Source: Verrucomicrobiales bacterium
GTDB taxonomy: Bacteria > Verrucomicrobiota > Verrucomicrobiia > Limisphaerales > UBA9464
Assembly: GCA_027489875.1 (NCBI GenBank)
Contig: JAIXZE010000077.1
Coordinates: 33,000-96,999, forward strand
Reading direction: 5' to 3'
Length of the DNA: 64,000 nucleotides
This document shows positions 1,929 through 6,659 of the stretch, in pieces. Under the pieces are notes generated by a model. The model was not told the origin of the DNA. It saw only the letters and a list, made by a program, of their open reading frames with translations, and ran no database searches. Both the position numbers and the translations under genes were made by a program. Numbering within the stretch: position 1 is the first letter of the stretch; the number at the start of each line of letters is the position of its first letter.

Positions 1929-2186
1929 ATGCAAGAAAAGACTACAGTCATTACGGAGTTCCGCACGCACGAGAAGGACACGGGTTCCCCCGACGTCCAG
2001 ATTGCCCTGCTGACGGAACGGATCAACAACCTGACGGAGCACCTGCAGAACAATCGCAAGGACGTGGCTTCCCGCCGCGGTCTGATGGCGATGGTGAGCA
2101 AGCGCCGTCGTCTTCTCGACTACCTGAAGCGCAAGGATGAGCCCCGTTATCAGGCAGTGACGAAGAAACTGAAGCTCCGGCGCTAA
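1929..2186 (+). CDS. rpsO: 30S ribosomal protein S15
   Basis: [23 protein letters not shown]...SRRGL...RRRLLDYL; immediately upstream of pnp. Confidence 0.97.
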
Positions 2187-2344
2187 TCCGCCGGGAAAGG
2201 ATGGAGGTTGGGTGGTTGCCTGATCTCCATCGTCGGTTGGCGAACCGTACCTGCGGGTACGGTTGGTTGCCGCAACGAGGCGCGCGCGGCAGCCTGCTGG
2301 CCGTATCCATGCCCGATTGTCGCGTCCGAAAAGCAGTCAACTGT

Positions 2345-2426
2345 GCCCGCCCATCTGGGAAACTTCACTCAACTCCCCCGACCCGTTGTCGGGGAGGCTG
2401 ACTGAAGTTTCTCATGTGGGGCGGGC
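2345..2426 (+). promoter_or_regulatory. Long imperfect hairpin in the pnp leader; putative RNase III processing site
   Basis: Paired arms gcccgccc/ggggcgggc, gaaacttca/tgaagtttc and ctcccc-gac/gtcggggag, ending 10 nt before the pnp ATG. Confidence 0.6.
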
Positions 2427-2436
2427 TGAATTACAT

Positions 2437-5400
2437 ATGCCCGAGAAAGTTATCATCCCGGTGGGTGATCAGGAGATCATCATCGAGACCGGAAAATACG
2501 CCAAGCAGGCGGACGGTTCAGTGACCGTTCAGTTGGGTGAAACGGTTATCCTTGTGGCCGCTGTGGCCGCGTCCAAAGCCAAGCCCGGCCAGGACTTCTT
2601 CCCCCTCACCGTCGATTACCGCGAGAAGGCGGCGGCGGCTGGCAAGTTCCCCGGGGGTTACTTCAAGCGTGAGGGTCGTCCGACTGAAAAGGAGATCCTG
2701 ACCTGCCGGTTGACGGATCGTCCCATTCGTCCCCTCTTTCCGAAGGGGTGGTACAACGAAGTGCAGGTGCAGAGCGTCCTGCTCTCCGCCGATGGTCAGA
2801 ATGACCCGGACATCCTCTCCATCCTGGGAGCTTCTGCTGCCCTGACGGTTTCTGACATTCCTTGGGATGGTCCTCTCGGAGCTGTCCGCATCGGCCGCGT
2901 GGCTGGCCAGTTCGTGGTCAATCCCACCCACGCCCAGCAGGCGGAGTCCGACCTGGATCTGATCTACGTCGGCAACAAGACCGACGTCGTGATGTACGAA
3001 GGTGCGGCCAATGAAATCTCCGAGGAGGACTTCATCGCTGCCCTCAAGTTCGCCCAGGAAGCCTGCCAGCCGCAGATCGCGGCCCAGGAGGAGTTGCGGG
3101 CGAAGGCCGGGAAAACGAAGCGGACCATCACGGTCAACATCGTTCCCGAGGAAATCCTGGCCGAAGCCAAGGCGTTGGCGGGTGATCGGATCATCCCGGC
3201 GCTGCTGGTGCCCCAGAAGCTCGCCCGCGAAGCAGCCGTGAATGCGGTCTTCGCTGATGTCGGTGAGAAGCTGAAGCAGAAATTCGGAGCCGAGAAGGTC
3301 ACCGATTACGTCCTCAAGGACGCCCAATACTACATCCAGAAGGAAACGGTCCGTCTCCTGATCCTGGATTCTGGCAAGCGGCTCGATGGCCGTGCCACGG
3401 GTGAAATCCGGCCCATCTCCAGCGAGGTTGGCTTCCTCCCACGGGCTCATGGATCTTCGGTGTTTTGCCGTGGTGAGACCCAGGCGGTGTGTCTCGCCAC
3501 CTTGGGAACCAGCGACGACATCCAGGAGTTCGATTCCTACACCGGTGGGGAGACCAAGAAGCAGTTCCTGCTGCATTACAACTTCCCGAACTTCTCGGTC
3601 GGTGAAACGGGCCGGATCTCGGGCCCTGGACGTAGAGAGATCGGTCACGGCGCATTGGCGGAACGTTCCGTTGCGCCCGTCATTCCGTTGAAGGAATACC
3701 CCTACGCCATCCGGATCACCTCCGAGATCATGGAGTCGAACGGCTCCACCTCGATGGCGTCGGTCTGCGGTGCGACCCTGGCATTGATGGATGCCGGTGT
3801 GCCGCTGATCCGTCCGGTGGCTGGCATCTCGATCGGCATCTGTACCGAGTATGGTGCGGATCATCAGATCAGCCGTTACAGCCTCCTGACCGACATCATC
3901 GGGTGGGAAGACGCGTTCTGCGACATGGATTGCAAGATCGCGGGTACGGAGAAGGGCATCACCGGGTTCCAGTTGGACCTCAAGCTGCGTGGATTGCCGC
4001 TGCCGATCATGGCGGAGGCGGTTGAGGCAGCGCGGATTGCCCGGCTTTCGATTCTGGGCGACATGGCCAAGACGTTGTCTGCCCCGCGTACGGACATCTC
4101 CAAGTACGCTCCGCGGATCACGGTCATCCGGATCAATCCCGAGAAGATCGGCCTGCTGATCGGGCCTGGCGGCAAGAATATCAAGCGCATCGTCGATGAG
4201 TCGGGATGCGAGATCAACATCGAGGACGACGGAACGGTTAAGGTGTTCTCGGTCACTCCCGAGGGCATGGAGATTGCCCGTCGTGAGATCGAGGCACTTG
4301 GCGCTGAAATCGAGATCGGCAAGACCTACAAGGGTCGCGTCGTCACGATCAAGGAGTTCGGTGCGTTCGTCGAAGTGTTCCCGGGTCAGGATGGTCTGGT
4401 TCATGTTTCCGAACTGTCCAACCGTCGCGTCAACCGCCCCGAAGACGTCGTCAAGATGGGCGACGAAGTCTGGGTCAAGTGCATCGGTGTCGACGACAAG
4501 GGGCGTGTGAAACTGAGCCGCAAGGCCGCCATGGAAGAGCGTGGCGAAGCGGCCGCGGTGCAGACTGAAACGGCAGGCACTCCGAGGCCTGAACGGTCGG
4601 AGCGGCCGGAGCGGGTTGAGCGACCTGAGCGCACAGAACGCCCGGAGCGTCCGGAGCGCAGCGAGCGGTTTGAGCGTCCGGCACGCGAAGAGCGGGTTGA
4701 ACGTCCTGCACGTGAAGAGCGCCCCGTGCGTGAAGACCGTGGGCCTGAGCGCGCAGAGCGCCCTGTTCGCGATGATCGGGGTTCAGATCGTCCTGAGCGT
4801 CCGGTGCGTGATGATCGTGCTCCTGAGCGGGCGGAACGTCCTGTGCGTGACGAACGCGCTGAACGTCCTGTGCGTGATGATCGGGCCCCGGAGCGTTCTC
4901 CGGAGCGCGCGCCACGTGGTGAACGTTCCGAACGTTCCGATCGCGGTCCTCGTGAAGAGCGTGTCGAGCGTCCTGTCCGGGACGATCGCGGTGAACGTAC
5001 CGAGAGGGTCACCCGTGATGTCCGTAGCGATCGCCCCGTGCGTGATGACCGTGGCGAACGGTCCGAGCGTCCTGTCCGGGATGATCGTGCGGAGCGCCCT
5101 GTCCGCGATGATCGTGGCGACCGCCCTGAACGGCCTGTCCGCGACGATCGCAGTGAGCGCAGCGAACGTGCCCCGCGTGATGATCGTGGCGAGCGGAGCG
5201 TGCGTGATGACCGTGGTGATCGCGTTGAACGTCCGGTGCGCGATGAGCGGGCTGAGCGTCCGGTGCGCGACGACCGTGGTGAGCGTCCGGTGCGGGATGA
5301 CCGCAGTGAACGTCCCGTACGGGATGATCGTGGCGAGCGTCCGGTCCGCAGTGATCGTGGAGAGCGTGCACCGCGCGCCGAGCGTGTGGACCGCGTCGAC

Positions 5401-5922
5401 GACCGCTTTGAGCGTCCGGCGCCTCCCGTTGAGGACCGCGGCGAGCGTCCCGTCCGCGCAGAGCGCAGCGATCGATATGATCGTGGCGAACGTGCTGAGC
5501 GCCCGCCTGAGCGTGGAGAACGTCCTGAACGCGGCGGCAGTCGCGAACGTTCGGTGGATCGCGGTGGAGACCGGAGCCGCCGGTCGTCTGCCGATGACGG
5601 AGCCGATGGTCTTGAGACCGGAAAGCTCTACCGTGCGAAAGTTGCATCCATCAAGGACTTCGGTGCCTTTGTGGAGTTCATCCCCGGCCGTGAAGGTTTG
5701 GTGCACGTCAGCGAACTCGCCAACTTCCGCGTGAAGCAGGTTGAAGACATCGTCCAGATCGGTGACGAGATCTGGGTCAAGTTGTTGGGTGTCGATGACA
5801 AGGGGCGTGTCCGACTGAGCCGTCGTGCGGCGATGGAAGAGCGCGAAAAGGCGGAGAATGGCGAGGCGGGAGGAGCTCCCGAGCCAGCTCCGGCTCCTGA
5901 GGACGATCGGTTCCTCGACTGA
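2437..5922 (+). CDS. pnp: Polyribonucleotide nucleotidyltransferase with ~330-aa Arg/Glu/Asp repeat and second S1 domain
   Basis: FFPLTVDYRE, RREIGHG, ESNGSTSMAS, KH (IGPGGKNIK), S1 at ~4306-4530 and a second S1 at ~5611-5835. Confidence 0.97.
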   Translation: MPEKVIIPVGDQEIIIETGKYAKQADGSVTVQLGETVILVAAVAASKAKPGQDFFPLTVDYREKAAAAGKFPGGYFKREGRPTEKEILTCRLTDRPIRPLFPKGWYNEVQVQSVLLSADGQNDPDILSILGASAALTVSDIPWDGPLGAVRIGRVAGQFVVNPTHAQQAESDLDLIYVGNKTDVVMYEGAANEISEEDFIAALKFAQEACQPQIAAQEELRAKAGKTKRTITVNIVPEEILAEAKALAGDRIIPALLVPQKLAREAAVNAVFADVGEKLKQKFGAEKVTDYVLKDAQYYIQKETVRLLILDSGKRLDGRATGEIRPISSEVGFLPRAHGSSVFCRGETQAVCLATLGTSDDIQEFDSYTGGETKKQFLLHYNFPNFSVGETGRISGPGRREIGHGALAERSVAPVIPLKEYPYAIRITSEIMESNGSTSMASVCGATLALMDAGVPLIRPVAGISIGICTEYGADHQISRYSLLTDIIGWEDAFCDMDCKIAGTEKGITGFQLDLKLRGLPLPIMAEAVEAARIARLSILGDMAKTLSAPRTDISKYAPRITVIRINPEKIGLLIGPGGKNIKRIVDESGCEINIEDDGTVKVFSVTPEGMEIARREIEALGAEIEIGKTYKGRVVTIKEFGAFVEVFPGQDGLVHVSELSNRRVNRPEDVVKMGDEVWVKCIGVDDKGRVKLSRKAAMEERGEAAAVQTETAGTPRPERSERPERVERPERTERPERPERSERFERPAREERVERPAREERPVREDRGPERAERPVRDDRGSDRPERPVRDDRAPERAERPVRDERAERPVRDDRAPERSPERAPRGERSERSDRGPREERVERPVRDDRGERTERVTRDVRSDRPVRDDRGERSERPVRDDRAERPVRDDRGDRPERPVRDDRSERSERAPRDDRGERSVRDDRGDRVERPVRDERAERPVRDDRGERPVRDDRSERPVRDDRGERPVRSDRGERAPRAERVDRVDDRFERPAPPVEDRGERPVRAERSDRYDRGERAERPPERGERPERGGSRERSVDRGGDRSRRSSADDGADGLETGKLYRAKVASIKDFGAFVEFIPGREGLVHVSELANFRVKQVEDIVQIGDEIWVKLLGVDDKGRVRLSRRAAMEEREKAENGEAGGAPEPAPAPEDDRFLD
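4585..5583 (+). repeat. Intragenic low-complexity tandem repeat encoding (R-x-E/D)n and RPVRDDR units
   Basis: Arg at nearly every third residue; about 13 RPVRD[DE] units with synonymous DNA variation. Confidence 0.95.
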
Positions 5923-5946
5923 GAGCCATCTGTTTGACGGAATCAG

Positions 5947-5976
5947 GGCGGTCCGCGTGAGCGGACCGCCTTTTTT
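5947..5976 (+). terminator. Rho-independent terminator of rpsO-pnp
   Basis: ggcggtccgc-gtga-gcggaccgcc followed by T6. Confidence 0.92.
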
Positions 5977-6026
5977 GTTGGCTTGGCGATTGGGTTTCCC
6001 TCGGTTCAGGGTTAGGCTCGCCGCCA

Positions 6027-6659
6027 ATGAAGGAAGCCTACATCGCGGCCAAGGAGCGCTGGGCAAGGAAGATGGCTGGCCTGGAGAAGCCGTCCGTCCG
6101 GTCTGTCGACCGTCTTCCTCCCGGCCAGCGTCAGGTTCAGAATTTCCCTGTCCTTGACCTGGGTGTGAAGCCCGAGGTTCCCGTCGATCGGTGGGAGCTC
6201 AAGATCGGGGGCCACGTCGATAATCCCGTGGTGCTGCGGTGGTCCGATTTCATGGGGTTGCCGCAATTCCGGGATAGCAGTGACTTCCATTGCGTCACCA
6301 CCTGGAGCCAATTTGACATGTCGTGGGAGGGAGTTGCCTTCCTGACATTGGCTGAACTTGTGCAGCCGAAGGCATCTGCGACGCACGTCTTTTTCAAGAG
6401 TCATGATGGCTATTCCACGAGCAATCCTCTCGACGTGTGCATGGATGACGACGTTCTGGTCGCGCACTCGTGGGATGGAAAACCGTTGGCGGTCGAGCAT
6501 GGGGGGCCGGCGCGGGTCATCGTTCCCAAGAAGTACGCCTGGAAGGGGGCCAAGTGGATCCGGGAGATCACGTTTCTGGATAGGGACATCCTCGGTTTCT
6601 GGGAAGTACGCGGGTACTCGAACACCGCGGATCCATGGACGGAGGACCGGTTCTCGTGA
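6027..6659 (+). CDS. Molybdopterin-dependent oxidoreductase, sulfite oxidase-like (YuiH-type)
   Basis: RLPPGQ, DFHCVTTWS, HGGPAR, KGAKW, GFWEVRGY. Confidence 0.85.
   Translation: MKEAYIAAKERWARKMAGLEKPSVRSVDRLPPGQRQVQNFPVLDLGVKPEVPVDRWELKIGGHVDNPVVLRWSDFMGLPQFRDSSDFHCVTTWSQFDMSWEGVAFLTLAELVQPKASATHVFFKSHDGYSTSNPLDVCMDDDVLVAHSWDGKPLAVEHGGPARVIVPKKYAWKGAKWIREITFLDRDILGFWEVRGYSNTADPWTEDRFS

Follow-up and report, generated by a model that had tools for sequence, protein, structure and literature searches.

Polynucleotide phosphorylase (PNPase) is among the most conserved enzymes of RNA decay, and its textbook form ends after one S1 domain. Here we describe a PNPase that extends well beyond that point. 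In a 64,000-nucleotide stretch of DNA from a Verrucomicrobiales bacterium (the window), the pnp gene runs past residues 1–700 of its product, which hold the canonical core and a first S1 domain (S1-1), for 461 more residues, comprising a long linker in which arginine alternates with acidic residues, a second S1 domain (S1-2) and a tail. The gene is the working pnp of a freshwater member of the Limisphaerales (Verrucomicrobiota), and its two-S1 form is not an assembly artefact. The tethered two-S1 design is conserved but undescribed, and it is not a new mechanism; on balance we lean towards reading the enzyme as a domain–linker–domain device for RNA capture and rebinding.

To our knowledge, RNA decay in this phylum is unstudied, and we know of nothing on how it is organised in bacteria of the Planctomycetes–Verrucomicrobia–Chlamydiae (PVC) group. 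The protein shares with canonical PNPases, including those of Caulobacter (4aim, 4am3) and Escherichia coli (3cdi, 7ogk), the succession of two RNase PH domains, alpha domain, KH and S1, and the gene shares with theirs the rpsO–pnp gene order and a structured leader. Caulobacter PNPase 4aim is the closest solved chain (658 bits over query residues 7–707). The solved full-length bacterial PNPase chains, of 705–784 residues, align in one stretch that ends at query residues 696–719 and never covers the linker, and residues 1059–1142 match, among solved structures, only a stand-alone S1 protein (2k4k). Named database copies are annotated plainly as polyribonucleotide nucleotidyltransferase, except for one 761-residue cluster member entitled 'predicted RNA-binding protein with RPS1 domain'. 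PNPase-directed full-text searches, which covered main articles only, turned up neither a PNPase with two S1 domains nor one that carries a disordered tract. The surveys of S1 proteins consulted say only that the number of S1 domains may differ between organisms for some proteins (PMC11641769, PMC6832287).

The gene lies in a single open frame at 2263–5922 of the forward strand, with the ATG at 2437 as the probable start, in agreement with other PNPases (Table 1). Pfam models above cut-off in the protein are RNase_PH (two stretches), RNase_PH_C, PNPase, KH_1 (residues 563–619) and S1 (two stretches, E = 5.7e-35). With the PNPase equivalog model of NCBIfam, TIGR03591 (cut-off 525), the protein reaches 986.7 bits over residues 9–697 only; with NF008805 (cut-off 471) it reaches 973.6 bits. 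Every sequence criterion applied places the protein in the PNPase family, and the 658-bit similarity to solved trimeric PNPases suggests a homotrimeric ring with phosphorolytic activity. The anatomy given in the original prediction, an RNase PH–PH–KH–S1 core followed by a long charged tract and a second complete S1 domain, is borne out by these models and by alignment; the long tract rich in Arg, Glu, Asp and Pro is there, and its predicted size of about 330 residues was slightly short of the 352–354 found.

The architecture recurs far beyond the source genome (6.2 Mb in 451 contigs, 89% complete). Among 25 genomes of its family (family f1, source genome counted), 17 carry an intact two-S1 open reading frame (ORF); in the other eight the gene is cut at a contig end, has its S1-2 piece on another contig, was unrecovered or, in one case, is frameshifted, and an intact one-S1 pnp was not found among the 25. 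One of the 17 is a single-contig genome of 7.9 Mb, whose PNPase has 1,167 residues and a linker of 360; a Limisphaerales chromosome of 7,892,095 bp is possibly the same genome, and the two were counted once. A named genome collection returned the same architectures, and a protein cluster at 90% identity has 14 members, of which seven, from several sources, are full length (1,152–1,167 residues). The closest named loci are titled Verrucomicrobiota, Limisphaerales or Pedosphaera sp. and come mostly from freshwater metagenome bins; some close loci carry evidently wrong labels (Akkermansia muciniphila, Cyanophyceae, Bifidobacteriaceae).

Contigs from public sequencing runs cross the same join. Four overlapping pieces from DNA sample X3 tile positions 4200–6000 with 0–1 differences, contigs from a different study (X5) span 4247–4814 and 4884–5875, and no insertion or deletion across the tract is listed in any of four public runs. 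Two metatranscriptome-labelled runs have contigs on the linker and into S1-2 (X15, 4861–5111 and 5485–5885; X16, 4563–4767, 4877–5127 and 5327–5605) that are 95–97% identical and come from close relatives. These fit transcription, a hint only, as such libraries can contain DNA; linker stretches left uncovered in the two RNA-library runs are uninformative either way.

We give very little credence to the alternative that the gene is a misassembled repeat or is decaying past S1-1. It would draw on the frequency with which short-read assemblies break in the tract, leaving the S1-2 piece on another contig (G002, G003, G006 and G023), and on the long-read (Canu-named) contig L037, which matches the entire gene at 90% DNA identity and bears an 11-nt insertion near residue 817 that shifts the frame. 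Downstream of that shift the frame of L037 is still open and 93% identical, and conservation, purifying selection and independent contigs oppose this explanation. Misassembly had been named beforehand as one of the points to check, and the same join is found in the 17 family f1 genomes, a single-contig genome among them, and in contigs of other samples.

The second S1 domain is an old copy of the first. The two are identical at 53 of 92 residues and 180 of 276 bases, and a six-frame search of the whole genome with S1-2 returned S1-1 as the best partner (109 bits, E = 2e-31), followed by a ribosomal protein S1 domain at 33 bits, in line with the clear similarity between the two that had been predicted. 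The trailing helix motif LSR-x-AAMEER was duplicated along with the domain. Identity to the single S1 of outgroup PNPases is about 70% for either copy, as against 59–65% between the two copies, and in a tree of S1 domains the S1-2 sequences form one clade (support 94) and the S1-1 sequences of two-S1 proteins another (support 100). These comparisons indicate that S1-2 is an internal duplicate of the enzyme's own S1, formed at the base of family f1, with both copies diverging afterwards.

Both copies retain the RNA-binding residue set and bear the marks of strong purifying selection. In an alignment of 47 two-S1 proteins, 33 positions are at least 90% conserved with the same residue in both copies, and one position is conserved yet different between them (D652 versus E1086). 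The residues F, F, H, D and R are named as the S1 RNA-binding site in PMC6832287. Across these proteins F641, F644, H656 and D686 of S1-1 never vary, and at least 90% retain R690; in S1-2, F1078, H1090, D1120 and R1124 never vary, and at least 90% retain F1075. Conserved basic residues special to S1-2 are R1066, K1068, K1100 and R1126. The ratio of nonsynonymous to synonymous substitution rates (dN/dS, NG86) of S1-2 is 0–0.11 in nine pairs, like that of S1-1 and the core. With its RNA-binding residues kept under strong purifying selection, S1-2 is evidently functional, RNA binding itself being ascribed from homology.

The duplication maps to a single point on the enzyme's phylogeny. A word-indexed protein search with residues 700–1161 listed 120 proteins (121 with the query): 78 of the 121 have two S1 domains joined by a linker of 39–359 residues (median 87), and 43 have one S1 followed by a tail of 62–339 residues rich in R, D, E and G. 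A tree of the core (residues 1–620; IQ-TREE quick, LG+G4) with 97 distinct rows groups all 48 two-S1-lineage rows in a single clade (SH-aLRT 98), whose sister is a one-S1 protein with a 116-residue RG/D tail, and two-S1 versus one-S1 requires a single change (45 + 47 scored rows). In 12 other families of the order, the 12 genomes sampled all encode a single S1, followed by a tail of 10–116 residues. The S1 duplication thus happened once, at the base of family f1. The Arg/acid tract is older, having existed as an R/G/D/E tail before the duplication and having reached 280–360 residues in the genus by repeat gain and loss, with Arg still at every third position behind an acid, Lys still absent and net charge still close to zero. 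Here the original prediction needs a first correction, in that the tail predates S1-2: single-S1 relatives carry tails of up to 339 residues.

A second correction is that other lineages, too, have PNPases with more than one S1. Among 300 further genomes sampled from the phylum, seven gave two strong S1 matches: in two the second match lies on another contig, and four, from three coded families (L114–L117; G302 included), encode a tandem S1–S1 PNPase of 802–816 residues with a spacer of 13–30. Metagenomic PNPases with three S1 domains also exist (P0147, P0259, P0205, P0287), with S1 at 616–693, 705–783 and 834–912 in a protein of 914 residues. These tandem and triple forms resemble the present enzyme in repeating S1 and differ in having no long tether. 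In each tandem form the second S1 resembles the protein's own first S1, and S1-2 is 46–63% identical to the second S1 of tandem forms in other families. The latter are no closer to S1-2 than to an ordinary S1, so that the duplication events were separate and that of family f1 is independent of theirs. S1 multiplication in PNPase is thus recurrent, with the long tether particular to family f1. Residues 621–1161 as a query are unsuited to give the distribution of two-S1 PNPases in other phyla: 9 of the 150 matches listed have a PNPase core, and ribosomal-S1-like multi-S1 proteins dominate.

The linker is an arginine-only polyampholyte of extreme regularity. Its 352–354 residues include 108 Arg, 58 Glu, 46 Asp, 40 Pro, 28 Val and no Lys, for a net charge of +4; the 700-residue core, for contrast, has 40 Arg and 44 Lys. 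None of 352 linker residues is Ile, Leu or Met and three are aromatic, a composition that suggests disorder. Charged residues make up a fraction of 0.61 of the central 344 residues, where net charge amounts to +0.017 per residue. Arg-to-Arg spacing is exactly three in 93 of 107 gaps, [D/E]R dipeptides outnumber R[D/E] by 79 to 21, and the longest run of like charge is two residues. Charge mixing is maximal, with a kappa-like value of 0.014 against 0.145 +/- 0.025 in shuffles (0 of 300 as low), and five other long linkers show the same mixing.

Beneath this regularity the repeats are old. Tandem Repeats Finder reports periods of 9, 27, 36, 39 and 63 nt, with 70–87% matches in nine of ten rows, the tenth being an exact 20-nt repeat. 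The octapeptide ERPVRDDR occurs in 10 identical copies encoded by 10 different nucleotide versions (mean identity 81%), which bears out the synonymous divergence between repeat units that had been predicted. The units themselves differ between lineages: ERPVRDDRG in the window, ERAERPER and DRPERGSDRG in the single-contig 7.9-Mb genome, about 25 near-perfect copies of DREPRG in L005, and ERAP/DRGS in L006 and L009; the grammar common to all is acid–Arg–spacer. Between the window and its closest relative, dN/dS is 0.012 in the core, 0.103 in the linker and 0 in both S1 copies. The linker value, from the two reliably alignable pairs, is about tenfold that of the core and far below 1, and together with the diverged codons for identical peptides it upholds the earlier suggestion of an old tract on which selection acts through the protein.

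Linker lengths fall into classes: 71–112 residues in most of family f1, 297–303 at three places on the tree, 280 once and 352–360 in the subclade of the window. The last range holds in four species although their linkers are 65–69% identical and need 46–76 gap columns to align. Long versus short amounts to three changes on the core tree, and a single origin of long linkers is marginally disfavoured (approximately unbiased test, p-AU 0.044, for a group named after the tree was seen and without three cut or frameshifted long-linker rows). Tight length classes despite unlike repeat units and many indels are seen on comparing L005, L006, L009, L012 and L042 with L001, L003, L007 and L010.

Such turnover invites the explanation that S1-2 is functional and the extra 200–280 residues of linker are nearly neutral slippage in GC-rich repeats, in which only a composition that keeps the protein soluble is selected and length itself serves no function. 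It would account for the different repeat units of different lineages, for the short linker of most of family f1 and for the three length changes on the tree. Near-identical strains also have all their indels and most of their substitutions in the linker: every indel among near-identical cluster members lies within residues 728–937, and substitutions number 14–33 in the linker, 1–6 in the core and 0–2 in S1-2 plus tail. Against it, linker dN/dS is about 0.1 and not about 1, the period-3 Arg register and the absence of Lys survive complete turnover of the repeat unit, identical peptides are specified by diverged codons, and lengths cluster tightly (352–360, and 297–303 at three separate tree places) despite the many indels. 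We consider tolerated expansion of this kind doubtful.

The combination of two S1 domains with a linker of conserved composition recalls a domain–linker–domain enzyme. Disordered linkers that join two binding elements confer processivity through spatial confinement (PMC6540235), and the PNPase would resemble the enzymes so described in being a processive polymer enzyme with a second substrate-binding domain on such a linker. Two S1 domains and a linker of conserved composition are observed here, and the disorder is predicted from composition. PNPase is not among the examples that the abstract of that source names, and the linker here is far longer and an Arg/acid polyampholyte. We suggest that every subunit of the presumed trimer holds a further S1 for RNA binding at the end of a flexible tether, well solvated and charge-neutralised, which would be soluble and non-sticky because each acid neutralises the adjacent Arg, with a reach of roughly 10–20 nm (a rough estimate from polymer scaling). 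The tethered S1 would catch RNA at a distance and raise avidity, rebinding would be favoured over release in processive 3′–5′ decay, and the three tethers of a trimer could hold or bridge long or structured RNAs.

Several observations weigh against RNA capture and rebinding. Single-S1 relatives bear equally long Arg/acid tails with nothing tethered to them (43 of the 121 proteins, 62–339 residues; 261 residues in L074), so that the tract must have a function of its own. Other Verrucomicrobiota have their second S1 only 13–30 residues after the first and most of family f1 uses 71–112; a tether of 354 residues is not needed for a useful second S1. The discrete length classes (about 90, 297–303 and 352–360 residues) are left unexplained by the capture model, and homology is the ground for assuming both the trimer and the binding of RNA by S1-2.

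In the scaffold region of RNase E, like charges are grouped in blocks. The original prediction cast the linker as a scaffold for RNA-decay condensates, and the likeness to the RNase E scaffold of BR-bodies, the ribonucleoprotein bodies found in bacteria, lies in a long charged disordered region carried by an RNA-decay enzyme (PMC10412687, PMC13405055). In Caulobacter, PNPase is a client of these condensates and its activity is stimulated there (PMC10412687, PMC13405055). Here the region is on PNPase itself and its charges alternate residue by residue, not in blocks. A closer parallel is with the arginine-rich mixed-charge domains (R-MCDs) of nuclear-speckle proteins and of fungal SPA-5, which likewise use Arg only, alternate it with D/E, are near zero in charge and have high valence (bioRxiv 10.1101/771592; PMC9324279). 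The linker has the sequence properties by which R-MCDs are defined (Arg and not Lys, D+E at 104 of 352, intermixed, near-neutral). It differs from them in being bacterial, in its period of three with a neutral spacer, in its 11% Pro and in lying between folded RNA-binding domains.

On these grounds the Arg-only mixed-charge tract might be cohesive, so that PNPase trimers self-associate or co-condense with RNA and Rho in place of an RNase E scaffold. R-MCD hallmarks (108 Arg to no Lys, D/E alternation, near-neutral charge) speak for this, as do 79 [D/E]R units in a tract when pure repeats of at least 40 RD dipeptides condense, R-to-K exchange abolishing condensation (bioRxiv 10.1101/771592); three tethers and six S1 domains per presumed trimer would supply valence, and the single-S1 relatives too carry Arg/acid tails with nothing to tether. 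The charge pattern speaks against it. Charges are fully mixed and lack the blocks of a BR-body-type scaffold, and an alternating R-MCD peptide had neither phase separation nor RNA affinity where a blocky version had both (PMC9324279). In simulations, linkers with a charged fraction above about 0.5 are expanded and suppress phase separation (PMC5703641); the fraction in the tract is 0.61. The repeat, moreover, has period 3 with P, G, V, A or S spacers and is not pure RD.

The other RNA-decay proteins of the genome bear on the same question. A six-frame ORF scan for dense [D/E]R tracts found three, which are long only in PNPase and Rho; the third spans 58 residues of a 134-residue ORF. None was found in the DEAD-box helicases examined. 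Rho (701 residues; contig C303, locus L118:392-2497, forward strand) has its RNA-binding domain from residue 340, preceded by about 330 residues with a DRGTDRGT-type [D/E]R-x tract and then poly-Gly and Gln/His-rich runs; the RNA-binding domain has a GFGFLR motif, and 42 [D/E]R fall in the 359 residues upstream of it. Atypical Rho factors with Arg-rich disordered regions are known from the PVC group, most of whose species are reported to have Rho type 2, and an RxR motif is described in such regions (PMC11347177), which this N-terminal region with its [D/E]R-x tract and G/Q/H-rich stretches resembles; the enzyme carrying the present linker is a different one, and PNPase has 0 occurrences in PMC11347177. 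Rho ORFs are 478–783 residues long in family f1 as against 375–443 in 13 of 15 other families with a full-length match, and a second Rho paralogue, 52% identical, is present in most relatives. One DEAD-box helicase of about 695 residues (contig C134, locus L133) has a C-terminal Ala/Pro-rich tail of about 250 residues with a short MGDRSMGDR repeat, a low-complexity type unlike the tracts of PNPase and Rho.

That Rho is the only other protein with a long [D/E]R tract counts towards a shared condensate, the more so as disordered regions of Rho drive phase separation in Bacteroides (PMC13269538, PMC10284900). Co-expansion of the two tracts as a rule was considered and rejected. Of 11 family f1 Rho genes with a readable N-terminal region, only 6 have the tract, so that it is not coupled to the PNPase linker; three of the five relatives that lack it (G015, G011 and G016, with 0–3 [D/E]R) have PNPase linkers of 280–302 residues, and neither tract therefore requires the other.

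The one protein of the RNase E/G family in the genome (765 residues; contig C121, locus L013:376-2673, forward strand) looks closer to RNase G than to RNase E and falls under both equivalog cut-offs. It ends directly after its catalytic and thioredoxin-like domains, without a C-terminal scaffold, and has an N-terminal extension of about 240 residues with a (His-Asp) repeat run and an RG/RD stretch, alignable only within the genus. Whether RNase E keeps its tail had been singled out as a check on the scaffold proposal, and the same C-terminal end is found in all 40 matching genomes of 41 at the level of the order. RNase Y and Hfq were not found in the 89%-complete genome and RNase J gave sub-threshold matches only, which, with the missing scaffold of RNase E/G, fits an organising role for PNPase. 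The proposal of a scaffold has fared unevenly: the anatomy, conservation, purifying selection and scaffold-less RNase E/G agree with it, and the fully mixed, non-blocky charge does not. We regard condensation through the tract as a minor though real possibility. An extended form, in which the organising role of the RNase E tail has moved in family f1 to PNPase and in some species also to Rho, is rather unlikely and is offered as a speculation: the [D/E]-R-x tract would be a bacterial counterpart of R-MCDs, trimers would assemble in an RNA-dependent way, their tethered S1 domains serving as stickers, and linker lengths of about 90, 300 and 355 residues would tune reach or material state.

The C terminus offers a further alternative. 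The window's subclade has six distinct long-linker sequences, and all six end in the aromatic motif [E/D]DRF-x-D (last seven codons, 5899–5919), a candidate docking peptide. Each of the 43 distinct tails compared is acidic beyond S1-2. Tract and motif together might form a regulatory or docking module that binds a partner (helicase, RNase E/G or Rho) or folds onto the KH/S1 crown as an RNA-mimicking autoinhibitor. The motif is missing from the remaining two-S1 lineages and the partner is only hypothetical; we think such a module improbable.

RNA capture and rebinding by a tethered S1 remains the account that we favour, and the family lends itself to work on it. A selected second S1 on a long tether across a whole family, together with independent S1 duplications elsewhere, suggests a recurring advantage of extra RNA-binding valence. 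The natural series of linkers of about 40–360 residues, with a fixed charge grammar and changing repeats, is material for the effects of tether length and Arg/acid alternation on capture, processivity and condensation, and within one universal enzyme it amounts to a clean experiment of nature in which tether length, Arg/acid grammar and the valence of RNA binding can be compared. The PNPase tract, the similar tract of Rho and the scaffold-less RNase E/G provide a testable entry into the organisation of RNA decay in PVC bacteria.

Table 1. Features of the pnp locus, in positions of the window.
Feature	Position	Strand	Evidence or description
rpsO (ribosomal protein S15), upstream neighbour of pnp	1929..2186	+	Pfam Ribosomal_S15, E 5.4e-37 on 1929-2183
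Conserved long hairpin in the pnp 5′ leader	2350..2421	+	Folding z-score, covariation
pnp coding sequence	2437..5922	+	1161 residues plus stop
Canonical PNPase core (RNase PH 1, alpha domain, RNase PH 2, KH)	2437..4296	+	Pfam, NCBIfam
S1-1 (residues 621-700)	4297..4536	+	Pfam S1, phmmer envelope
Linker (residues 701-1054), Arg-only [D/E]-R-x alternating polyampholyte of diverged 9-residue (27-nt) repeats	4537..5598	+	
S1-2 (residues 1055-1134), internal duplicate of S1-1	5599..5838	+	Pfam S1, sequence comparison
Acidic Ala/Pro-rich C-terminal tail, ending ..EDDRFLD, and stop codon	5839..5922	+	
Terminator-like hairpin and T run	5945..5982	+	12-pair stem, 9 G-C, TTTTGTTGGC tail

Downstream, pnp is followed by a gene with a molybdopterin oxidoreductase domain. 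Four open frames that overlap the linker on both strands, at 4401–5012 (−), 4541–5734 (+), 4783–6066 (−) and 5009–5647 (−), were rejected as genes: they are low-complexity shadows, and the selection signal fits the pnp frame. These frames (within 4401–6066; 203–427 residues) read as Ser/Arg- or Thr/Ala-rich low-complexity strings. The predicted terminator is present as a hairpin with its T run at 5945–5972, 23 nt past the pnp stop; a scan for terminators overall gave three sites against a shuffle mean of 3.1, with no excess, so that only position and stem strength favour it.

The 257-nt pnp leader is strongly folded (z = −5.2). Across 19 sequences its hairpin has 25 pairs, with 91.8% of cells paired and compensatory changes at 12 pairs, a signal reached by 0 of 500 shuffles and compared with only 34–63% pairing in slid controls. 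Matches of positions 2345–2426 to two microRNA families of Rfam (26.6 and 24.6 bits) are far under the gathering scores and were set aside as reflecting the long hairpin only. The leader hairpin may serve in autoregulation; since a search of the 89%-complete genome found no RNase III (PF14622), we do not claim autoregulation of the E. coli type through RNase III. The hairpin is present across the order, one-S1 outgroups included, and its middle stem, in which GGGAAAUUUCACUCA pairs with UGACUGAAGUUCCUC, is nearly invariant.

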